Positions 1,570 through 63,114 of a stretch of 64,000 bases of DNA are shown piece by piece. A program made the position numbers and the translations under genes. Source of the stretch: Gemmatimonadota bacterium (lineage in GTDB: Bacteria; Gemmatimonadota; Gemmatimonadetes; Palauibacterales; KS3-K002); NCBI GenBank assembly GCA_039586575.1, contig JBDHKD010000005.1:6062-70061 (forward strand). Direction: 5' to 3'. How positions within the stretch are numbered: the stretch's first letter is position 1; each line of letters opens with the position of its first letter. The notes beneath the pieces were generated by a model that had not been told where the DNA came from, ran no database searches, and saw nothing but the letters and a program-made list of their open reading frames with translations.

Positions 1570-2544
1570 CTATTCCAGCACTTCGATCTGCTGGCGCCTC
1601 ACCCGGCGCAACTCGTATACCTGGGCGACCTCGGCGCCCAGCACGAAGACGATCGATAGGTAGTAGAACCAGACGACCACGACGACGAGAGTGGCAATCC
1701 CCCCGTAGATCGAGGTGAAGCTGGCGATCCGGGTCAAGTAGAAGGTGAAGCCCTGCTTGAGGAGTTCCCAACAGATGGCGGTGAAGGCGGCGGCGGTCAG
1801 GGCCATGCGCCAAGGCACGCGGCGTGCCGGCACGTACTTGTAGAGCAGCAGGAAGAGCAAGAAGATGAAGGCCAGCGCGGTGACCTGAGCGGATATCCGC
1901 TCCAGGATCCCGACGTGCTCGGGCGACAGTCCCAGGAACTCGAAGCCGCGGCTCTTGACCAGATTGAAGACGATGGTGATGCCGATATTTAGAATGACAA
2001 GCACACTGGAGACCAGAACCATCTCGGCATCGAAGATCTTGCCCTGGATCACACCGCGGCTCTGACGCAGGTCGAAGATCTCTCTGAGGATGGCCCTGAC
2101 GGAGCCGAACAGACGGGTCGACAACCAGACGAAGGCCACGAAGCTGATCACCCCGATCGCCTGGCCTCGCGTCACCACACCCTGGATGACTTCCTCGGGG
2201 AGGTTACGCTCCGCTCCGGCCGCTAGACCCTCACCGAGCACCGGAACGATGACATCGAGGTAGCGGCGCAGCTGCTCGATGGGCTCGAGACCGGCCGCCT
2301 CCGCCGCCGCTTCGAGCGTCAGGCTGATGAGGGCAACGACGATGAGGAGGAAGGGAACGGCGGCGGCGACGACGTTGAAGGTGAGGCCGCTGGCGAGCAC
2401 GAAGACGTTATCGTCGTCGGCCTTCTCGAAGACGCGGACCACGTAGTCCTTGAGGGCAGCCCAGGACTCAGCCGCAAAGCGCTGCGCCCTCCCCAGCAGC
2501 TCTTGCTTGCGGGAGGGCGCTACCGCCGGATCGTGGACTTCCAA
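1570..2544 (-). CDS. YihY/BrkB family inner membrane protein
   Basis: 324 aa with multiple TM helices; YihY-like pattern (…FNVVAAAVPFLLIVVALISL…YGGIATLVVVVVWFYYLSIVFVLGAEV…). Confidence 0.8.
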   Translation of the reverse strand: MEVHDPAVAPSRKQELLGRAQRFAAESWAALKDYVVRVFEKADDDNVFVLASGLTFNVVAAAVPFLLIVVALISLTLEAAAEAAGLEPIEQLRRYLDVIVPVLGEGLAAGAERNLPEEVIQGVVTRGQAIGVISFVAFVWLSTRLFGSVRAILREIFDLRQSRGVIQGKIFDAEMVLVSSVLVILNIGITIVFNLVKSRGFEFLGLSPEHVGILERISAQVTALAFIFLLFLLLYKYVPARRVPWRMALTAAAFTAICWELLKQGFTFYLTRIASFTSIYGGIATLVVVVVWFYYLSIVFVLGAEVAQVYELRRVRRQQIEVLE

Positions 2545-2582
2545 GATCGGGTGGCGTTTCGGCCTTCAGCCGCTAACCGTGG

Positions 2583-3026
2583 TCAGCTCTCTCCGGACTC
2601 GTCGCCGTCACCGCGCGACTCGCCCAGTCGATCCTCCATCTCGCTACGCGCCGCGCGCGCGGCCTTGCGCCCGGCGTCCAACGCCTGCCCGGCGCGCGCC
2701 CGGCCTTCCGCCACCTTGCCCTTCGCCACCTCGTACTTGTCCTCCACCTGGCGGCGGCCCTGCGAGAAGGCCTCTTGCAGTGTATCCTGCAGTTCGCCTG
2801 CTTTCTCTTCGGCACGCTCGCGCAGTTGCCTGGCCCGCTCCTTGAGTTCCTGTTGGGTCTCGGCGCCGGACTTCGGCGCGAGCAACAGGGCAGCGGCGGC
2901 GCCGAGGAGCGCGCCCCAGACGAACGGAATCAGACCGGAGCCAGTACGTTCGATCACCACGTAGGGGACGCCATCGTCATCGTAGTCACGCATCTGTCTG
3001 TCCTTTCGCCGATCTCGCTTATCCAC
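2583..3026 (-). CDS. YtxH domain-containing protein (N-terminal TM helix followed by a charged coiled coil)
   Basis: 147 aa; GALLGAAAALLLAPKSG then an E/K/R/A-rich helical region typical of the YtxH family. Confidence 0.65.
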   Translation of the reverse strand: MDKRDRRKDRQMRDYDDDGVPYVVIERTGSGLIPFVWGALLGAAAALLLAPKSGAETQQELKERARQLRERAEEKAGELQDTLQEAFSQGRRQVEDKYEVAKGKVAEGRARAGQALDAGRKAARAARSEMEDRLGESRGDGDESGES

Positions 3027-3038
3027 TCCGCGGCCCGG

Positions 3039-3302
3039 CTAGCTCTCACGCAGGACGCGGCGCAGCTCTTCCATGTTGACCGGTTTCGTCAGTGCGATCC
3101 AGCGGGCATCGCCCGGGGGTGCCGGCCCTGCTGCCAGCCCCTCCCTATATACTACGAAATCGGGGGTGATTTCGTTCACCCGGTCCGCTCGGCCCACCAC
3201 CCCCTCTACCCGCACCTGGTAGCCCTCGCATGAGAGAACCCGAGCTAGCGCGTCCCGGCACGGACCAGCTGCATCTATGAGGAGGATACGCCGGGGGGCC
3301 AT
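3039..3302 (-). CDS. Small CheY-like pseudo-receiver domain protein (lacks the canonical phospho-acceptor Asp)
   Basis: 87 aa; ILLIDAAG…IALTKPVNMEELRRVL resembles a truncated receiver fold with the K-P motif kept and the DD / D motifs degenerate. Confidence 0.45.
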   Translation of the reverse strand: MAPRRILLIDAAGPCRDALARVLSCEGYQVRVEGVVGRADRVNEITPDFVVYREGLAAGPAPPGDARWIALTKPVNMEELRRVLRES

Positions 3303-3393
3303 CGTTGACCTCGCGAAGCCAGGTCGGGGAACAACGAAACCGCGGTGTTCCTGAACTCAAGATAGATGAAGCGGGCCAGTCGAGCAATCGAGC

Positions 3394-4173
3394 TTACTCG
3401 ATATCGACGATCAGGCCGTCGTACGCCGGCTCCATCCCTTCGGGCAATCGCGCCCGCAAGTCGCCGTAGTCGAGCCGGTGGGTGAGGTGAGTCAGATAGG
3501 TCCGCCGTGCGCCGAGCGACTGTGCCGTCGCCACCGCCTCCTCGACGTTGAAGTGGGTGGGGTGCGGGTCGCCCCACCAGAGCGCGTTGATCACCAGGAC
3601 ATCGACACCTTGTAGGATGGCGCGTGCTTCATCGGGGACGGTCTTGCCGTCGACGATCACGCCAAGCTTGCCGCTGCGGAAACCGTACGAGTTCATCCGG
3701 CCATGGGGAAAAAGCAGCGGCCTCAAGTGGAAGCCGGCCAAGTCGAGCTCGCCGTTCGGGTCGAAGGTGCGCAGCGCGATCTCCGGTGCGCTGGTGCCCG
3801 GCTCGGGCTGGATCGAGTCGTCGAAGATGTAGTCGAAGCGGGCCCTCAGCACGTCGGCGAACTCCCGCGCCACGTACATGGGGAGCGGCGCCCTGTTCCG
3901 CAGGCTGAAGACGCGCAGGTCGTCGATCCCATGGAGGTGGTCGGCGTGCAGGTGCGTGAGAAAGACCGCGTCGACTCTCGCGATCGCAGCGCTCAGCAGC
4001 TGCCACCGGAGTTCCGGCGGCGTGTCGACCAGCAGGAGTCGACCCGCCGATTCCAGGGCCAGGCCGTGGCGCGAGCGCCGGTTACGCGGGTCGTCGGACC
4101 GGCATACCCCGCACCCGCACCCGACAACAGGCACACCGAAGCTGGTTCCGGTTCCCAGGAATCGTAGCCGCAC
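3394..4173 (-). CDS. MBL-fold metallo-hydrolase (PhnP/cyclic phosphodiesterase-like)
   Basis: 259 aa; LTHLHADHLHGIDDL metallo-beta-lactamase motif, GTGTSFGVP N-terminus. Confidence 0.85.
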   Translation of the reverse strand: MRLRFLGTGTSFGVPVVGCGCGVCRSDDPRNRRSRHGLALESAGRLLLVDTPPELRWQLLSAAIARVDAVFLTHLHADHLHGIDDLRVFSLRNRAPLPMYVAREFADVLRARFDYIFDDSIQPEPGTSAPEIALRTFDPNGELDLAGFHLRPLLFPHGRMNSYGFRSGKLGVIVDGKTVPDEARAILQGVDVLVINALWWGDPHPTHFNVEEAVATAQSLGARRTYLTHLTHRLDYGDLRARLPEGMEPAYDGLIVDIE

Positions 4174-41697: not shown

Positions 41698-42135
41698 CTA
41701 GTTCCGGCACTTCGGGCAGTAGCCGATCAACTCCAGCCGATAATCGAGAATCTCGAAACCGTCGTCGCTGCGAATCCCCTCTATCAGGTCCGTGTCGTGC
41801 GTGCCGACGACGTCCCGCACCACACCGCACTTCAGACAGCGAACGTGATCGTGGTCATCCGTACGGCCATCGTAGCGCGCCGGACCACCGCCCAGTGCAA
41901 GCTTGCGGGCCACGCCCGCCTCGACGAACGCCTCCAACGCCTTGTACACCGTCGCCAGACTGATGTCCGGCAGCACCTCACGCACCTGCGTGAAGATCTC
42001 GTCGGCCGTGGGATGCGACGTCACCTTGCGCAGGTAGCGGTAGATCGCCGCTCGCTGCGTCGTGTGCCGGTGGCCGGCCGTCTCCAGCGCCGACCTCAGC
42101 CTGTCCTCCGAGCTACCGCTTGGCGTGACTTCCAT
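41698..42135 (-). CDS. fur: Fur-family transcriptional regulator (Fur/Zur/PerR type not resolvable)
   Basis: 145 aa; wHTH (…HRHTTQRAAIYRYL…HPTADEIF…) and metal sites HDHVRCLKCG … CPKC. Confidence 0.88.
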   Translation of the reverse strand: MEVTPSGSSEDRLRSALETAGHRHTTQRAAIYRYLRKVTSHPTADEIFTQVREVLPDISLATVYKALEAFVEAGVARKLALGGGPARYDGRTDDHDHVRCLKCGVVRDVVGTHDTDLIEGIRSDDGFEILDYRLELIGYCPKCRN

Positions 42136-51437: not shown

Positions 51438-52160
51438 ATGATGACTACTGCGCAGGGCGGAGATCGTTCGCACGCCGTCGAGGACTATCTGAAGGCGATC
51501 CGGTACCTCCAGCAGGAGAGCACGCCGGTGAGCACTTCCGCCCTCGCTCAGTTGCTCGACCGCTCGCCGGCCTCGGTCACCAACATGATCAAGAGTCTGG
51601 CCGAGCGGGGGCTCGTCGAGCACGAGCCCTACCATGGGGTGCGCCTGAGCGAGGCGGGTGAACGGGAAGCCTTGCGGATCATCCGGCGTCATCGAGTCAT
51701 CGAGGCGTATCTGATCGAGAAATTGGGATACTCCTGGGACCAGGTGCACGCCGAGGCGGAGCGGCTCGAGCACGCTGCCTCGGACGAACTGGTGGAGCGG
51801 CTGGCTGATGCTCTGGGACATCCGGCGGCGGACCCGCACGGTTCGCCGATCCCGACGGCGGAAGGTGAGGTCGCGGAGTGGCAGCATCCGGCGCTCTCGC
51901 GTGTCGCGGCGGGCGCGCGTGTGATTGTGCGCGAGGTGAGCGATGCGGATGAAGGACGACTGCGCTACCTGGCGGAGCTGGGTCTTTATCCGGGTACGCG
52001 GGTCGAGGTCATGGAGCACGAACCGTTCGAGGGCCCGATCCGCGTGCGGGTGGCCGGCGCGGAGCGATCGGTGAGTCGCGCCCTGGCCGATATCGTGAGA
52101 GTAGAGTTGCAAGGTGATGGACCCGGTGGTGGAGCGGATTGCAACGCCATCGACAGCTGA
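51438..52160 (+). CDS. Metal-dependent transcriptional regulator, DtxR/IdeR/MntR family with C-terminal SH3-like (FeoA) domain
   Basis: 240 aa; HTH + metal-binding helix (…VEDYLKAIRYL… PASVTNMIKSLAERGLV … RHRVIEAYL…) and a FeoA-like C-terminus. Confidence 0.88.
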   Translation: MMTTAQGGDRSHAVEDYLKAIRYLQQESTPVSTSALAQLLDRSPASVTNMIKSLAERGLVEHEPYHGVRLSEAGEREALRIIRRHRVIEAYLIEKLGYSWDQVHAEAERLEHAASDELVERLADALGHPAADPHGSPIPTAEGEVAEWQHPALSRVAAGARVIVREVSDADEGRLRYLAELGLYPGTRVEVMEHEPFEGPIRVRVAGAERSVSRALADIVRVELQGDGPGGGADCNAIDS

Positions 52161-56246: not shown

Positions 56247-56951
56247 ATGCGATTCGGCCAACGGCCGATGGCAGTCCTAAAGAGTCTCAACCCCTCGGCT
56301 CTGGAAGCGCTGCGCTCCCTTGGCTCGGTGCGCAACTACCGCAAGAACGAGGGGATCTACGAGGTGGACCAGCCGGCCGACGCTCTGTACGTGGTGCTCC
56401 GGGGCCGCGCCCGGCTCCGGGACCGCGATTGGGAGGGCCGCGATATCACGGTCAGCTTCGCCGCCGAGGGCGAGCCGTTCGGGCTGGAGGCGCTTGCCGG
56501 TCTGACGCGTCGCACGCTGACGGCGATAGCCGCCGAGAGCAGTGAGCTACTCAGCATCGACGCGGAGGCGCTCCGGGGCTTGCTGGAGCGGGATCCGTCC
56601 CTGGCCCGGGCACTGCTTCGTTACACTGCCGAGGTCATGACCCATATGGACGAGCGGATCAAGATGCTCGCCTTCCTCGATGTGCCGTCGCGGCTTGCGG
56701 GCACGATCCTCTGGCTGGCCGATCGTTACGGCAGCGAGAGCGAGCGGGGTGTCGAGGTGCCTTACTGGTTCACGCACCAGGAGATGGCCGACCTGATCGG
56801 CTCGACGCGCGAGACGGTCACCACGGTTCTGGCCGAGTTCAAGCGCCAAGGGCTGGTGGACAGCCGTAACCACCACTTTGTGGTGATGGATCGGCGGGCG
56901 CTCACCGAGCGCATCCGGTTGCCGCACTTCGGCGAGGCTGTTGCAGGGTAG
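56247..56951 (+). CDS. Crp/Fnr family transcriptional regulator
   Basis: 234 aa; cNMP-binding-like beta-roll + C-terminal HTH (…HQEMADLIGSTRETVTTVLAEFKRQGLV…). Confidence 0.88.
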   Translation: MRFGQRPMAVLKSLNPSALEALRSLGSVRNYRKNEGIYEVDQPADALYVVLRGRARLRDRDWEGRDITVSFAAEGEPFGLEALAGLTRRTLTAIAAESSELLSIDAEALRGLLERDPSLARALLRYTAEVMTHMDERIKMLAFLDVPSRLAGTILWLADRYGSESERGVEVPYWFTHQEMADLIGSTRETVTTVLAEFKRQGLVDSRNHHFVVMDRRALTERIRLPHFGEAVAG

Positions 56952-57860: not shown

Positions 57861-58820
57861 TCAACTCGCACCCCAGGCCGCGGCTACCTGGGCAGCTCCT
57901 ACGGTACTTGCCTGGTTCAGTGCCCTCAGGGCCGCTGCCAAGAGCAGCTCGGGACTGGCCTCGATCTGGCCGTTGCGGCCTTCGGCGCCGGCAACGCCGG
58001 CACTGAAGGTGACCGGGTACTCGCCGTCCACACGCTTCGACAGGGACAGCGAGGTGAAACGTGCAGCGAGTTGAAGGCCGCCCCTCGGTGGCGTGTTCGG
58101 TGCCAGCACGATGAACTTCAGTAGCTCCAGGTGGCCCACCACATCCGAGTTGCGCGTGCCGTGGTGCAGAGCGAGCGAGAACTTCATCTCGAGATCCAGC
58201 GCATGCTCAGCCGATACGCCCGCTTCGGCGGGCGTGCCATCGGCAGCGAATACGATGCACGTCAGCGGCGTTTGAGTTCGCCGAGCCAACGCGACCAGTT
58301 CCCTCAGCCTGCGCTTGATCCCCAACGACGTATAGTGGCCGGTCTTAACGTCGAGCAGCATGCCGGACTGAATCCCATCCACGTCCCGCTTGAGCCAGAT
58401 CCAAGTGCCCAGCTTCGCCGCCAGCTCGACCGATTGGCCGGGCAACTCGATCACGTCCCAAAAACCGTCGCCCAAGGCTGCGGTCCGTCCCTCGTAGCTC
58501 AGCCGCTCATCGCAGATACCGATCAGCGGGATCGTCGGTCGCCGACCCCCGGCACGTAGCTGTCGGCCGATCTCGATGCGTGTGCTCACCGGCAGCCGCC
58601 TGAGATCGAGTAGCACCGCATCGCTGCGACGGTCGCCGAGGTAGCTGCTCAATGGGTCGGGCCGCGGCCGCGGCTCGAGCCGGTAACGATCGTCATGAAG
58701 GATACCCGACAGCGCTTCCAACAGCGCATCGTCGGTCGTGATCACCGTAACGGTCGCGGGCCCATGCGGGGATGTCGTCGTGCCTGCATCCAGCGGGAAC
58801 CGCTCCTGGACCATCGCCAT
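57861..58820 (-). CDS. Response-regulator receiver domain fused to a degenerate GGDEF-like domain
   Basis: Start at MAMVQERF (ATG at 58818-58820). Receiver-like (…DAVLLDLRRLPVS…IPLIGIC…) then a GGDEF-like fold (…DVKTGHYTSLGIKRRLRELVALARR…LTCIVFAADG…) with the GG(D/E)EF signature replaced (…HLELLKF…). Confidence 0.6.
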   Translation of the reverse strand: MAMVQERFPLDAGTTTSPHGPATVTVITTDDALLEALSGILHDDRYRLEPRPRPDPLSSYLGDRRSDAVLLDLRRLPVSTRIEIGRQLRAGGRRPTIPLIGICDERLSYEGRTAALGDGFWDVIELPGQSVELAAKLGTWIWLKRDVDGIQSGMLLDVKTGHYTSLGIKRRLRELVALARRTQTPLTCIVFAADGTPAEAGVSAEHALDLEMKFSLALHHGTRNSDVVGHLELLKFIVLAPNTPPRGGLQLAARFTSLSLSKRVDGEYPVTFSAGVAGAEGRNGQIEASPELLLAAALRALNQASTVGAAQVAAAWGAS

Positions 58821-59098: not shown

Positions 59099-59383
59099 TC
59101 AGAGCAAGTCGTCGGTCGCTTTGGCGTGCTCGAAGATCGGCCGCAGCGTCTCCTCCCAGCGGGCGGCGGCCTCCGGGTCTGCGGTATCGTTGAGGTAGGC
59201 CTCCACGACGTCGGCGGCCAGTTCGGCGTGCGCGATGGGGCGCGAGTGGATCCGCAGCCGCCAGTGGTCGGGCGGCGCGTCCCCCTGGCCCGGCGGGGTC
59301 GGCGACACGTTCCAGTAGCCACCCCAGTCGCGGAAGGTCTGCATCAACTGATCGCGCAGCTGTCGGCGACGGTCTTCACTCAT
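59099..59383 (-). CDS. Hypothetical small protein (94 aa), last gene of the ApbE-associated cluster
   Basis: ORF with coding-like composition; no motif. Confidence 0.45.
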   Translation of the reverse strand: MSEDRRRQLRDQLMQTFRDWGGYWNVSPTPPGQGDAPPDHWRLRIHSRPIAHAELAADVVEAYLNDTADPEAAARWEETLRPIFEHAKATDDLL

Positions 59384-59403
59384 GAAATCCCTGTCCTCTC
59401 TGA

Positions 59404-59910
59404 TCAGTCTCCCGGGGCGACAGCCGGGTGCTGCGCGGCACCCGGTCGACGCTCGCGCGTGGCGGCGCTCGGCACGTCATGCCGCGCACCGGACTGCGAC
59501 TTCGCGACGAGCCGATGCCACGTCAGGCCCGCCGAGAAGATAAGGCCGAGTACTATGTGGGCTACCGCCATGGCGCGCAACCAGCCGATGTGAGTGATGA
59601 CTTGTATCAGATATCCGCTGAGGACCAGTGGCGCGACCGCCAGCACCATGACCAACCCGCTCTGCCGGCCCCGCTCCAGCCCCGCTCGGTAGTGGTTCCA
59701 GACATGGCGTGTGGCGACGAGTCCCAGGGCAAAGATGAATAGCGGCGACACTATGATGTGCGCTTTGAGGAAAGCGGGCTGCAGCGGGTGATTGATCACC
59801 GCCCAGGGGTCGGCGCTCGTTAGGAAGTACTTGGTGTAAAGAAGACCGATGCCGGTGAGCGTCGTCGCCGCCGCCGTGAGCCAGACGCTCCACCTCTCGA
59901 AACGGTTCAT
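59404..59910 (-). CDS. His-rich 4-TM membrane protein (DUF4405-like; possible b-type haem-binding electron-transfer subunit)
   Basis: 168 aa; four predicted TM helices with His inside or near them (INHPL, KAHII, TRHVWNHY, ITHIGW, VAHIVLG, TWHRL); 4-bp overlap with the FMN-binding protein gene. Confidence 0.65.
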   Translation of the reverse strand: MNRFERWSVWLTAAATTLTGIGLLYTKYFLTSADPWAVINHPLQPAFLKAHIIVSPLFIFALGLVATRHVWNHYRAGLERGRQSGLVMVLAVAPLVLSGYLIQVITHIGWLRAMAVAHIVLGLIFSAGLTWHRLVAKSQSGARHDVPSAATRERRPGAAQHPAVAPGD

Positions 59911-60503
59911 CGCCGGCTCGCGCCGCCCACGCCGGCCAGCGGCCCGATCACCTCGTGCAACGCCAGCGCACGGCGCGCCGCATCGGTGACGGTTCGCGAC
60001 GTCAACGTCGCACCGCTCATGAACCGGATGGAGCCCTTGCCCGAGAGCTCAGCAGTGAGCGCCTGCCCTGCAAACTGTTCCAGCCATCCGTCGGGCGCTC
60101 GGTACTCGGGCGGTTCCGAGAACTTGAGTACCTCGATGCGCGCGATACGGGAGTCGGGCGTCACGACGATCATCAACACTTCCGGCAGAGTGCGGACGCG
60201 ATGGGCATCGAAGTAAGCGACACCGAGGGGCGCATCGCCCTGCCGTCCCATGTAGTAGGTGATCACGCGCTGTTCCAGCGCCACTTCGCTGCCGGCCAGT
60301 TCCCGTGCACGCGCCAGGTCGTCATCATCGAGAAACGCCGTCTGCCGCTCGATGACCGCCGGCTCGGGAAAGACCAGGCGTAGCGCCTCATCCTGCGTCA
60401 GGCGGACCTGTGCCAGCGCTGCTGAACCGGAGACCGCCAAGCAGAGCGGCGTCACGGCCAGCCCCGCTTGGAGCAGCTTAGAAGATGTAGCCGAACGCGA
60501 CAT
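59907..60503 (-). CDS. Secreted FMN-binding domain protein (FMN_bind; NqrC/RnfG-type) with SGAT flavinylation motif
   Basis: 198 aa; signal peptide; C-terminal …GSIRFMSGATLTSRTVTDAARRAL… contains the [S/T]GAT motif that ApbE flavinylates. Confidence 0.75.
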   Translation of the reverse strand: MSRSATSSKLLQAGLAVTPLCLAVSGSAALAQVRLTQDEALRLVFPEPAVIERQTAFLDDDDLARARELAGSEVALEQRVITYYMGRQGDAPLGVAYFDAHRVRTLPEVLMIVVTPDSRIARIEVLKFSEPPEYRAPDGWLEQFAGQALTAELSGKGSIRFMSGATLTSRTVTDAARRALALHEVIGPLAGVGGASRR

Positions 60504-61884
60504 TGAACCGGTCGATTCCCGTATTGGCCTCGTTTCCGTGGCTCTGGTGGTCGGCCTTCACCACGATGTGGGTGACCGGCTTCCAGGCCAGGCCGAGCGT
60601 GACGATCCGCCTGTCGTAGGCCGGGTCCGCCACGAAGCCGTTCGGCACCCGGTCCTGGGTGTCGATCTCCTCGTACCGCAGGTAGGGGATCAACTGCTGA
60701 CGCGTGCGCACCCGGTTAAGCACATCGTATCCCAGCTGGACGTACCAGCCGCTCAGCCGCTCACCCACCGACTCCGAGACGCTCAGGTTCTTGGCGGCGT
60801 TGATATGCTCCACGTCATCGATGTGGGCACGCGCGTACAGTGCGCGCAGGTCGAAGCCGCGGGCCCGGTACTCGGCGTGGCCCTCCCAGATCAGGGTCGT
60901 CGCAGCGATCGTCGTACCGTCGAGCGGCGATTCGGCGCCCTGGCCCGACCGTCCGACGTAGAGCGAGGTTCCCAGGACGAGCCCCAGAAGGCCCACGTAG
61001 TCGACGCGGCCGACGCCGCCGAAGTCTTCCGCCACCGCCTTCGAGCCCTTCTGCCGACCGCCACGCAGGCCGGCGGCGCTGAAGCCCGAAGCGTTCGAGC
61101 TACCACCCCCGACGGCGTCGAGGCCGTTCACCAGGTAGGCCCGGTAGGCGAAGCCGGCGGCGTCACCGAAGACGCCGATCCCGTTCTCGCGCCAAGTCGT
61201 AGGTATGATCTGCCGTTCCGTCTCGGGGCGCGTGGTTCCCAGGAAGGTCGTCGGCTCGTGCAGCTCGTTGATGAAGCCCATGGGCACGAGGACCAGACCA
61301 CCACGTACTCCCAGATAGTCGGACGCCAGGTAGTCGATGTAGGCGAACTCGACGGACACCGACCCGGCCTGCCCCGTCGATGCATGCTCCAACTCGATCT
61401 CCGAGTTGAATACGAAGCGGTCGTTGAACTTGTAGCCGAAGTAGAACACGGCGCGCAGGAAGTCGATTTGATCGCTGCGGGCCGCCGCCGCCCCGTCCTC
61501 GCGCTCGTTCGCGAAGTTCTCGTAAAGGAGTTCCCCGTAACCACCGATGGAAACCCCCTGGTTGAGCTGGTAGACCTTAGAAGCCGCCGGGCCGAAACCG
61601 TAGACCCCCGTGTCCGCCTCCACGACGACCTCCTGGCCGAGCCGGAGCTCCTCGATCTCCCGGGTCAACGCTTCGACCTGCCGCTCGAGCCGGGCCAGCT
61701 CCGTGCTGTCACGGCTGGCCAGCTGCTGGCGCAACCACTCCACCTGACGCTCGAGCTCGGCCAGCCGCTCCTGCAACTCCGCCTCCTGGCCGTGCGCCGC
61801 CGACGCCGAGACCGCCAGCGCCAGCCCCACGGCGACCGCTAGAACGCAACGGGGTCGAGTCTTCACCGACATAACATGCTTCAT
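60478..61884 (-). CDS. Outer-membrane beta-barrel porin with N-terminal periplasmic coiled coil (DcaP-like)
   Basis: Start at MKHVM (the ATG shares its A with the apbE TGA at 61884). Signal peptide, coiled coil (ELQERLAELERQVEWLRQQL…LERQVEALTREIEELR), alternating amphipathic beta-strands, C-terminal …NVAFGYIF (terminal Phe). Confidence 0.75.
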   Translation of the reverse strand: MKHVMSVKTRPRCVLAVAVGLALAVSASAAHGQEAELQERLAELERQVEWLRQQLASRDSTELARLERQVEALTREIEELRLGQEVVVEADTGVYGFGPAASKVYQLNQGVSIGGYGELLYENFANEREDGAAAARSDQIDFLRAVFYFGYKFNDRFVFNSEIELEHASTGQAGSVSVEFAYIDYLASDYLGVRGGLVLVPMGFINELHEPTTFLGTTRPETERQIIPTTWRENGIGVFGDAAGFAYRAYLVNGLDAVGGGSSNASGFSAAGLRGGRQKGSKAVAEDFGGVGRVDYVGLLGLVLGTSLYVGRSGQGAESPLDGTTIAATTLIWEGHAEYRARGFDLRALYARAHIDDVEHINAAKNLSVSESVGERLSGWYVQLGYDVLNRVRTRQQLIPYLRYEEIDTQDRVPNGFVADPAYDRRIVTLGLAWKPVTHIVVKADHQSHGNEANTGIDRFNVAFGYIF

Positions 61885-62933
61885 CACACCTCGCCCACGA
61901 GTAGCCACGGTTCCAACGCTCGATTCCAAGTCGCCCTGATCTCCTCACCTTCTTGCTCGAGGAACAGCACGCCCACCTCAACCCGCGGTGCCGCCCACTC
62001 CATCCCTCGCTCGGGACCCAGCACGAAGAGCGCGGTCGCTGCCAGATCGGCCACCAGCGGATCTTCGGCCACGACCGTCACGCTCCCCCAGGCCGGCATG
62101 GGTCGACCGCTCCGCGGATCGAGGATATGGCCGTGCCGCTCACCTTCGATCTCGACGAAGCGCTCCGCTGCGCCGCTCGTCGCCGCCGAGCGATCGGCGA
62201 GCCGAATCCGAAACGCCGGCTCCGTCCGCCGCGCCGGATGCGCGATCGCCACCACCCAGGCCTGGCCTTCCGCCGGACCGCCGATCGCCAGGAGCTGGCC
62301 GCCGAAGTCGAGCAGTCCCGACTCGATCCCTGCCGCCCGCAGCACCCGACCGGCCGCTCGCAGCGCGGCGCCCTTGCCGAAGCCGCCCGCCGTCATCCAG
62401 CTCCCCTCGGCTCTCCGCGTCACCCTCGACCGCCCCTCGTCGAGCACGAAGGCGTCCGCTCCGCTCAAAGCCCGCGCCCGCGCGAGCTCCGCCGGCCCCG
62501 GTCGCCGACCTCCGTCCCGCAGCCCCCAAGCATCGATCAACGCGCCCACCGCCGGCTCGAATGCACCACCGAAGCCCGCACCCCACTCCTCCACCTCGAC
62601 CAGCAAGCCGAACAGCTCGCCAGACAGCGGCGTCGGCACGCCGGGCGGCGTACGGTTGAGGCGCGACAACTCCGAGTCCTCGCGCCAGCTGCTCAATACA
62701 CCCTCCAAGCGGCCCACCTCGCGGAACGCCCGCTCGATCGCCTCCGCCCCCTCGCCAGCGCCGGCCGCTGTCACCTGCACCCTGAGCCGCGTCCCCATGA
62801 GGTAGGCTTCCCGCTCCACGAGCACGCCCGACGCCGCCGGGACCGCAGCCGAAGGGGGTAGGACGGCCACGACCCCGGCGAGCATCAGGGCGACCCAGGC
62901 TAGGAGGGGTCGGAATGCAGTCATACGGTTCAT
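61884..62933 (-). CDS. apbE: FAD:protein FMN transferase (ApbE family), periplasmic
   Basis: Signal peptide; …EAYLMGTRLRV… and …ERHGHILDPRSGRP… are conserved ApbE motifs. Start at M18 (62931-62933) or M21. Confidence 0.88.
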   Translation of the reverse strand: MNRMTAFRPLLAWVALMLAGVVAVLPPSAAVPAASGVLVEREAYLMGTRLRVQVTAAGAGEGAEAIERAFREVGRLEGVLSSWREDSELSRLNRTPPGVPTPLSGELFGLLVEVEEWGAGFGGAFEPAVGALIDAWGLRDGGRRPGPAELARARALSGADAFVLDEGRSRVTRRAEGSWMTAGGFGKGAALRAAGRVLRAAGIESGLLDFGGQLLAIGGPAEGQAWVVAIAHPARRTEPAFRIRLADRSAATSGAAERFVEIEGERHGHILDPRSGRPMPAWGSVTVVAEDPLVADLAATALFVLGPERGMEWAAPRVEVGVLFLEQEGEEIRATWNRALEPWLLVGEV

Positions 62934-63114
62934 CCGTCGGGTCGAGCCGGGGGGCGGAGTTATGAGATTGAAACCCATTCTCATTCACCGCGCCAAACTA
63001 GCCCGGACTTTCCACCCCGTCAAGTCGCACGCCGCCATGAGAAATGACAGCAGAAGCGGCGAGCGAGCTGAAGCCCGCCCCCGCCACTCGCGGTCGGTCG
63101 CGCTGAGCCGTGGC

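Follow-up and report, generated by a model that had tools for sequence, protein, structure and literature searches.

Known flavinylation-associated systems are of the NapH-like, MsrQ-like, PepSY-like, DsbD, Nqr/Rnf-like, and DUF4405 kinds, and small cytochromes and iron transporters are known partners of flavinylated proteins (PMC8238504, PMC11334425). Links to iron assimilation have already been described, through P19/FTR1 and through TonB receptors with PepSY proteins (PMC8238504, PMC11334425). Here we describe a module of four genes in a 64,000-nucleotide stretch of a Gemmatimonadota contig (JBDHKD010000005.1, positions 6,062 to 70,061), the whole of which we call the window. The genes encode an ApbE flavin transferase, a predicted outer membrane porin, a secreted FMN_bind protein, and a small membrane protein with four transmembrane segments (4-TM). 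We put the probability at about one half that the module reduces ferric iron in the periplasm for uptake, by a pathway that has its own channel and is repressed by metal.

In PepSY-like systems of the FoxB type, an inner membrane di-heme cytochrome and a flavinylated periplasmic FMN_bind domain are clustered with an outer membrane transporter, and periplasmic iron reduction for assimilation has been proposed (PMC8238504, PMC11334425). Both this composition and this role resemble what we propose for the module. The module differs in that the 4-TM family is unrelated by sequence, with no PepSY_TM match; in that its outer membrane partner is predicted to be a passive 16-stranded porin of the OprP fold with a coiled-coil stalk, rather than a TonB-dependent receptor; and in its putative control by a TGAGA-N5-TCTCA box. 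P19/FTR1 clusters link ApbE and a flavinylated protein to an FTR1 permease (PMC8238504), as do two relatives of the module (L085 and L045). However, FTR1 is found at 2 of about 90 loci and none lies beside the module in the window; the constant partners are instead the porin and the 4-TM cytochrome-like protein.

DUF4405 proteins are, like the 4-TM protein, small His-rich membrane proteins co-localized with apbE. Their central conserved His residues were shown experimentally to bind heme b, and they are six-TM proteins reported mainly in Proteobacteria and Firmicutes (PMC11334425). The 4-TM protein, in contrast, has four TM segments and no match to PF14358, and it is found in Gemmatimonadota and Thermoanaerobaculia. 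The Listeria monocytogenes system (FmnB, PplA) also resembles the proposed pathway, with ApbE-type flavinylation of a secreted FMN_bind protein, electrons supplied from the membrane, and Fe(III) reduction. It differs in belonging to a Gram-positive cell with no outer membrane or porin, in its carriers (Ndh2, demethylmenaquinone [DMK], and EetA/B), and in being respiratory and not metal-repressed.

Set beside these systems, the module is not categorically new; what is new here is a membrane-cytochrome-like family, a dedicated channel of predicted OprP fold, and a defined metal-type operator. A porin partner is not mentioned in the main text of PMC8238504 or PMC11334425, and a full-text literature search returned no paper joining flavinylation, ApbE, porin, and outer membrane. 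The eLife supplement does list a Gemmatimonadota cluster, but this is a dehalogenase cluster unrelated to the module. If our reading is correct, the 4-TM proteins would be a fifth kind of flavinylation-associated membrane cytochrome, and the module would offer a candidate mechanism by which two soil and sediment phyla, abundant but poorly cultured, acquire iron (or manganese). Its four genes would also form a compact unit that can be tested heterologously and whose regulation gives a clear handle.

Gene layout and conservation of the module

The four genes of the module are as follows.

61884 to 62933, minus strand: ApbE, a FAD (flavin adenine dinucleotide):protein FMN (flavin mononucleotide) transferase; the ORF (open reading frame) finder extends it to 62984, and the probable start is Met18 at 62933
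60478 to 61884, minus strand: predicted outer membrane porin, 468 amino acids; the ORF reading reaches 61929 (483 amino acids), and public annotation takes the ATG at 61884
59907 to 60503, minus strand: secreted FMN_bind protein of the RnfG/NqrC type, 198 amino acids, predicted ApbE substrate
59404 to 59910, minus strand: 4-TM membrane protein of an unnamed family, 168 amino acids, predicted di-heme b-type cytochrome

A preliminary description of this DNA, made from the sequence alone, had reported an operon of five minus-strand genes, the fifth encoding a 94-amino-acid protein, with overlaps at every junction. All five ORFs were confirmed on that strand with matching coordinates, in a region of 65 to 74% GC. 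The first three junctions do overlap, with 1 base common to the ApbE stop codon and the porin ATG, 26 bp to the porin and FMN_bind genes, and 4 bp to the FMN_bind and 4-TM genes. The 4-TM and 94-amino-acid genes do not overlap and are separated by a 20-bp gap. Source annotations give "hypothetical" for the 4-TM protein, the 94-amino-acid protein, and one near-identical copy of the porin, and "RnfG subunit" for one protein that is nearly identical to the FMN_bind protein but shorter; the sources of homologs carry the names Gemmatimonadota or Gemmatimonadetes.

With each species represented by one genome, a scan detected a relative in 151 genomes, and 80 loci were kept. These are mostly from Gemmatimonadota (Gemmatimonadales, Longimicrobiales, and others), with about nine from Thermoanaerobaculia/Acidobacteriota. 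By tblastn with the window proteins, the order ApbE-porin-FMN_bind-4-TM on one strand occurs in about 80 species-level genomes. Among loci with enough sequence, the FMN_bind gene adjoins the 4-TM gene, immediately upstream of it, in 80 of 81, and the porin gene is adjacent in 72 of 73. ApbE lies upstream in 61 of 70 loci and downstream in 2 more, and other lineages have an alternative order, porin-FMN_bind-4-TM::ApbE, in which the last two are fused. Clustering of the flanking ORFs gave no conserved neighbor beyond the four genes. The flanks are variable, and the frequent ones are housekeeping genes (GTPase, Clp protease, trigger factor, IMPDH, and extracytoplasmic function [ECF] sigma factor); thus, the four-gene unit is autonomous. 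The conserved core is these four genes, to which the proposed five-gene operon is reduced; the 94-amino-acid gene and a downstream REC/degenerate-GGDEF gene are accessories of the window's subclade. The synteny extends beyond this genome, recurring across two phyla and surviving rearrangement and fusion. Together with the flavinylation motif and the conserved His residues described below, this means that all three outcomes named in the preliminary description as refuting it went in its favor; its interpretation is supported, with corrections.

In one metagenome-assembled genome (MAG), MFD09212.bin.1.36, three near-identical copies of the module lie on three contigs (L020, L022, and L024); these may be strain variants or assembly redundancy.

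ApbE and its predicted flavoprotein substrate

ApbE matches PF02424 with an E value of 4.1e-62 (210.5 bits, cut-off 25.6; profile positions 1 to 258 of 266) and solved ApbE structures with an E value of 1.9e-32. Its N terminus after Met18, as read from the translation, has a hydrophobic segment and no lipobox Cys. The start is probably at 62933 or 62924 rather than 62984, because the ATG at 62984 overlaps the conserved operator described below; the 51 nucleotides upstream would then be operator and not coding sequence. The FMN_bind protein matches PF04205 (E = 4.6e-8, 34 bits, cut-off 22) and has weak RnfG matches too. Both assignments had been made in the preliminary description, and both are above the Pfam thresholds.

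The ApbE flavinylation motif [S/T]GA[S/T] has been defined experimentally (PMC8238504). The SGAT noted earlier near the C terminus of the FMN_bind protein is present at residues 163 to 166.

60006 to 60017, minus strand: flavinylation motif S163-G-A-T166, read from the translation, with Thr166 as the predicted FMN attachment site

The [ST]GA[ST] motif is kept in 80 of 85 FMN_bind orthologs from related loci; of the remaining 5, 4 read A/I-GAT and 1 comes from a frameshifted gene (L004). The FMN_bind protein is thus the predicted flavinylation substrate of ApbE. At L004, on a JGI contig, the porin gene is also split over three called ORFs in different frames (positions 1746 to 3132), and the FMN_bind gene ends prematurely, ahead of its motif; the broken genes are probably frameshifts or assembly errors.

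The 4-TM protein as a putative di-heme cytochrome

The structural model of the 4-TM protein has four helices (predicted local distance difference test [pLDDT] score, 89.8). Five of its nine His residues are invariant or nearly so, and their codons are as follows.

59788 to 59790, minus strand: H41
59758 to 59760, minus strand: H51
59704 to 59706, minus strand: H69
59557 to 59559, minus strand: H118
59515 to 59517, minus strand: H132

Counted over 236 aligned family members, H51 is conserved in 231 of 235 sequences, H69 in 229 of 230, H118 in 219 of 223, and H132 in 219 of 222. H41, within a periplasmic NHPLQP loop, is kept in 224 of 233, whereas H107 is not conserved and H73 is kept only among close relatives. 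The model is of a four-helix bundle in which four conserved His residues, each present in at least 98% of 222 to 235 sequences, lie pairwise near the membrane faces. The family is sizeable: an exhaustive profile search reached 1066 representative clusters, 176 of them at E ≤ 1e-30.

The top structural neighbors of the model include HyaC, CybB, FdnI, and cytochrome b. Cytochromes of the b561/Ni_hydr_CYTB type (HyaC, FdnI, CybB) are four-helix bundles of about 170 to 220 amino acids with two b hemes, and the H-x13-H on their last helix matches H118/H132. The other two His of FdnI are on TM1 and TM2, whereas both are on TM2 in the 4-TM protein. Sequence similarity to this group is below the family threshold, and the partner is a predicted flavinylated protein rather than a hydrogenase or formate dehydrogenase. 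The window protein has no Pfam family match even at E ≤ 10, DUF4405 (PF14358) included. A Pfam scan of 118 aligned members gave only hydrophobic noise as recurrent hits, with weak Ni_hydr_CYTB (PF01292) hits in 4 of the 118 (best E = 4.7e-4; none for the window protein). One representative scored 27.3 bits on Ni_hydr_CYTB, for which the cut-off is 30.1.

Natural 4-TM::ApbE fusions occur in at least nine representative clusters (members P0309, P0318, P0324, P0325, P0342, P0347, P0350, P0353, P0370, and P0377; loci L087 to L089) and tie the 4-TM family to flavinylation. A fifth hydrophobic segment precedes the ApbE domain in these fusions. As ApbE acts outside the cytoplasm, this extra segment implies that the 4-TM protein itself has both termini in the cytoplasm. 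With this topology, H51/H118 would lie toward the periplasm and H69/H132 toward the cytoplasm.

Based on the model and on His conservation, the 4-TM protein is likely a new, distant branch of the small di-heme cytochromes b, with heme binding predicted. By analogy, it may work in a manner comparable to PepSY-like, MsrQ-like, and DUF4405 proteins, and it is a member of none of these. Of the earlier 4-TM assignment, the four helices and the conserved His residues stand, the latter near-invariant across the family, whereas the label "DUF4405-like" does not. DUF4405 membership was rejected, as there is no hidden Markov model (HMM) match and there are four TM segments rather than six. The 25 families with the most frequent matches among the 118 members do not include PF14358, on which one fusion protein scores 17.2 bits (E = 0.0073, cut-off 26.7).

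Two single occurrences of the family stand apart. P0352 (L090, positions 2262 to 3599) is fused, or called as fused, to an outer membrane barrel domain of the Phenol_MetA_deg type and lies downstream of the usual porin and FMN_bind genes. The MAG BHB10-2_Bin_329 (L034, L060) has a second, solitary 4-TM paralog, L060, with no porin, FMN_bind, or ApbE gene nearby.

The porin as a putative selective channel

The porin has no Pfam match even at E ≤ 10, matches no NCBIfam porin family, and gives nothing beyond coiled-coil noise (residues about 45 to 100) against PDB sequences. Its AlphaFold model, built with 60 homologs (pLDDT 81.6), has 16 strands and an N-terminal helix at residues 12 to 82. The parts of the protein are a signal peptide (residues 1 to 32), a barrel (residues 110 to 468), and the C terminus GYIF, along with the following.

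61639 to 61788, minus strand: coiled-coil-like periplasmic helix, residues 33 to 82, in the AlphaFold model
61192 to 61287, minus strand: loop L3, residues 200 to 231, VPMGFINELHEPTTFLGTTRPETERQIIPTTW, the predicted constriction loop and most conserved segment
61024 to 61125, minus strand: loop L4, residues 254 to 287, including GLRGGRQKGSKAVAE, a second hyper-conserved loop

The earlier "DcaP-like porin" with a coiled coil is borne out as to the N-terminal coiled coil and the 16-stranded barrel, and not as to DcaP membership by sequence. Assignment to DcaP or another named porin family by sequence was rejected, with no match in Pfam, NCBIfam, or PDB. The modeled barrel appears closer to OprP than to DcaP. 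Neither OprP/OprO nor DcaP of Acinetobacter baumannii has detectable sequence kinship to the window porin, and there is no Porin_O_P match at E ≤ 10. Unlike OprP/OprO, its L3 is rich in Glu and His and is not only an Arg ladder, and unlike all three, its gene sits within a redox operon.

The alignment of 60 porin homologs has 76 invariant columns, and identity is 58 to 73% among the 120 homologs listed, which suggests a family unusually conserved for an outer membrane protein. Mean column conservation is 0.85 in L3 and 0.84 in L4, against 0.77 in the strands, and the invariant residues include E207, H209, E210, R219, and E223 in L3 and R274, R277, Q278, and G280 in L4. In the model, this is the pattern expected of a substrate-specific constriction. 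A 16-stranded barrel is too narrow to hold a redox protein as the larger MtrB holds MtrA. Thus, rather than conducting electrons, the porin in our view serves as a selective channel and possibly as a docking stalk too. A flavinylated barrel of the DUF3570 type (PMC8238504) was rejected: the search to E ≤ 10 gave no DUF3570 match, and [ST]GA[ST] is missing from 45 of 60 porin homologs and at scattered positions in the others.

In tblastn comparisons, the porin is 42 to 73% identical and the 4-TM protein 37 to 59%, making the porin at least as conserved as its inner membrane and periplasmic partners. L3 and L4, the best-conserved parts, are predicted to be extracellular, the reverse of the usual porin trend. 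These conserved surface-side loops raise the separate question of which small species the porin selects.

A conserved operator-like box and its association with metal genes

Upstream of ApbE are two elements.

62995 to 63023, minus strand: promoter-like element read from the sequence, with -35 TTGACG (63023 to 63018), a 17-nucleotide spacer, and -10 TAGTTT (63000 to 62995)
62963 to 62983, minus strand: AT-rich putative operator TGAGAATGGGTTTCAATCTCA, with core TGAGA-N5-TCTCA, overlapping the ATG that the ORF finder assigns to ApbE

The arrangement CTTGAC[AG]-N17-TA(G/A)GxT is kept upstream of the module in close relatives. A consensus promoter and terminator scanner found nothing between 56900 and 63400; it did not call the module promoter because the -10 matches only 3 of 6 positions.

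The box, a palindrome of the TGAGAAT-N-ATTCTCA type, lies directly after the -10 element and has a single match within the window. When up to 3 mismatches are allowed, TGAGAATnATTCTCA matches 72 times in 900,835 bp of related loci, and all but about 4 of these matches are at the 5' end of the module, before whichever gene leads; this is ApbE or, at loci that lack ApbE or have it downstream, the porin. Of 69 loci having upstream sequence, 59 carry the box. The consensus from 63 sites is aGTTGAGAATGrnTCTCAAt, and their GC content is 36%, compared with 67% in the background. The 7-1-7 shape of the box (TGA-N9-TCA) is the shape of Fur-family boxes. We regard it as a conserved, newly observed operator of probable Fur-family type. 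The classical Fur box GATAATGATAATCATTATC has no match within 3 mismatches in the window, and a literature search on the box sequence gave nothing informative. A structured RNA or riboswitch was rejected, with no Rfam match at E ≤ 1 between 58900 and 63300.

Both the module and the box are associated with metal genes. At L085, in Thermoanaerobaculia, the order on one strand is box, fur, FTR1/EfeU, ApbE, porin, FMN_bind, and 4-TM, and the box follows a TTGACC-N17-TATATT promoter. The fur-family gene there matches PF01475 (E = 1.4e-32), with Fur as the best NCBIfam models, and the FTR1/EfeU iron permease matches PF03239 (E = 1.7e-28). At L045, an FTR1/EfeU gene lies 1.5 kb downstream of the module on the same strand. 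At L087, the gene directly upstream of the module encodes a DtxR-family repressor, and at L091 a gene of this family overlaps ApbE by 4 bp; at both loci, it heads the operon.

For a metagenome scan, we used one exact 17-mer variant of the box, TTGAGAATGGTTCTCAA, which occurs in many unrelated high-GC contigs without the module. It lies within 250 bp upstream of mntH in three contigs (L097, L126, and L158; PDB MntH, E = 1.8e-107), of TroA/ZnuA/MntC-type binding-protein genes in four (L094, L130, L165, and L166; E = 1.3e-26), and of FTR1-like permease genes in two (L105 and L112). Because the same 17-mer precedes metal-uptake genes elsewhere, the box likely acts as the operator of a divalent-metal-uptake regulon, which suggests a widely used Fur/Mur-type operator. 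FeoA as the product of small ORFs after the box (L104, L108, and L144) was too weak to claim (E = 0.08 to 0.27). In the window, a DtxR-family gene with an FeoA domain (51438 to 52160, plus strand) scores best as MntR (E = 9e-63). Neither it nor the window's Fur-family gene has the box upstream at up to 3 mismatches.

Proposed pathway and alternative explanations

In the pathway that we consider about an even bet, periplasmic ApbE would move FMN from FAD to Thr166 of the secreted FMN_bind protein. The 4-TM protein would hold two b hemes between TM2 and TM4, one at H51/H118 on the periplasmic side and one at H69/H132 on the cytoplasmic side, and electrons would pass from the quinol pool or the cytoplasmic side through these hemes to the flavoprotein. 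The flavoprotein would then reduce Fe(III), as ions or small chelates, admitted by a trimeric porin of the OprP fold whose conserved L3 and L4 loops would form a specific constriction. Fe(II) would enter through a separate inner membrane permease, FTR1/EfeU where linked and one encoded elsewhere in this genome. A Fur-family repressor, whichever paralog it may be, would bind the TGAGA-N5-TCTCA box over the transcription start and turn the operon off when metal is sufficient.

We also suggest, more tentatively, a fuller version of this pathway: that Gemmatimonadota and Thermoanaerobaculia have an undescribed reductive iron route, independent of TonB and siderophores, in which the porin stalk docks the flavinylated reductase, fed by the 4-TM di-heme cytochrome b, in one inner-to-outer-membrane assembly under Fur control.

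Several observations weigh against an iron pathway built on a di-heme cytochrome. The box also precedes mntH and Mn/Zn/Fe-type ATP-binding cassette (ABC) genes, which bears on the identity of the metal, and the best-scoring models for the DtxR-family genes of L087 and L091 are those of MntR, although no score reaches its cut-off. The window has a single Fur-family gene (41698 to 42135, minus strand), which resembles PerR more than Fur (E = 1.2e-33 for PerR versus 6e-25 for Fur), and the box in the window departs from the palindromic consensus at 3 positions. Linkage to iron genes is rare (FTR1 in 2 loci and fur in 1, of about 90), and a permease for the product is not encoded in this operon. 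As for the 4-TM protein, no Pfam cytochrome family was reached at threshold by the members scanned, weak CopD hits occur in 5 of 118 members (best E = 2.7e-5), and the His spacing is unequal, with 18 residues on TM2 and 14 on TM4.

The metal could be manganese instead, with Mn(III) complexes or Mn(IV) oxides reduced, or Mn2+ admitted, for Mn(II) uptake under Mur-type or MntR control. The MntR-leaning repressor genes at L087 and L091 fit this, as does the identical box before mntH and TroA/MntC-type binding-protein genes. However, those regulator scores are all under the curated cut-offs, so the metal specificity is not fixed by them, and MntH and TroA-type systems carry Fe2+ as well. Iron is favored because of the FTR1/EfeU genes physically linked in L085 and L045 and the L085 fur-family gene, which scores best against Fur models; we consider manganese rather improbable.

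In dissimilatory extracellular electron transfer (EET), quinol electrons would travel via the cytochrome and the flavoprotein, and soluble shuttles (free flavins, quinones, or metal chelates) would carry them across the porin to external acceptors, a Listeria-like respiration. The module and the Listeria system share their logic, in which ApbE is combined with a flavinylated protein outside the cytosol and an electron carrier in the membrane (PMC8238504), and an OprP-type anion channel could suit phosphorylated flavins. Yet an operator of the metal-uptake type and the linkage to fur, DtxR-family, and FTR1 genes speak for assimilation, and the conserved unit, with its housekeeping flanks, has no dedicated NADH dehydrogenase, quinone-biosynthesis gene, or multiheme cytochrome. 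Assimilation under metal repression is more likely than respiration, and we give EET little credence. The ferric reduction offered among several roles in the preliminary description thus gains backing from the Fur-type operator and the fur, DtxR-family, and FTR1/EfeU genes, whereas an extracellular respiratory role becomes less likely.

Similarly low odds attach to the 4-TM protein being a His-lined, CopD-like metal permease, which would make the module a channel, reductase, and importer, with electrons for the flavoprotein coming from elsewhere. The module would then hold its own importer, the NHPLQP loop with His41 could capture metal, and the CopD hits would be explained. But an otherwise autonomous unit would be left without an electron donor. 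A His pair in each leaflet, contributed by two helices that bear two His apiece, is the classic bis-heme pattern; the nearest folds include cytochromes b; and the Ni_hydr_CYTB near-hit is comparable in strength to the CopD hits. The ApbE fusion also parallels other flavinylation-associated cytochromes (PMC11334425).

We think it still less probable that the module is a peroxide or oxidative-stress system under PerR-type control, supplying periplasmic electrons for repair or detoxification in the manner of MsrPQ or CybB. PerR boxes have the 7-1-7 shape too, the window's only Fur-family gene is PerR-like, and CybB is among the structural neighbors of the 4-TM model. Nevertheless, no MsrP-like or other catalytic partner is present, the dedicated, highly conserved porin would go unexplained, and the genes that accompany the box include FTR1, mntH, and metal-ABC genes and the Fur-like gene of L085. 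A fortuitous juxtaposition of the porin or of the whole arrangement, for which we found nothing in favor, is refuted by the locus counts and the order recurring in about 80 species-level genomes of two phyla, by the retention of the four parts after reordering and fusion, and by the common operator before whichever gene leads.

Accessory and neighboring genes

Downstream of the module in the window are two accessory genes.

59099 to 59383, minus strand: 94-amino-acid protein of unknown function, without a signal peptide; subclade accessory
57861 to 58820, minus strand: REC-like/degenerate GGDEF-like protein, 319 amino acids from Met66 of a long ORF; subclade accessory

The 94-amino-acid gene was detected in 8 distinct loci among 83 (67% identical in L006), and its product has no Pfam, NCBIfam, or PDB match. 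A hairpin 3' of this gene (11-bp stem, -25.8 kcal/mol) is no better than shuffled sequences (z = -1.56), and a terminator is accordingly not claimed there. A Crp/Fnr-family regulator gene (56247 to 56951, plus strand) converges on the accessory genes; its position is kept in the window's subclade (13 loci), with no module association elsewhere. The 94-amino-acid, REC-like, and a 146-amino-acid gene occur with the module only in that subclade.

The REC/degenerate-GGDEF gene is found in about 14 loci (78% identical in L006). Its product has no Pfam match, falls far below the cut-off of the NCBIfam DgcR model (E = 5.5e-6), and matches the GGDEF/response-regulator structure 6zxm in PDB (E = 1.4e-6). 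The earlier remark that its GGDEF domain is degenerate is backed by these weak but consistent matches to DgcR, a REC-GGDEF protein of Leptospira.

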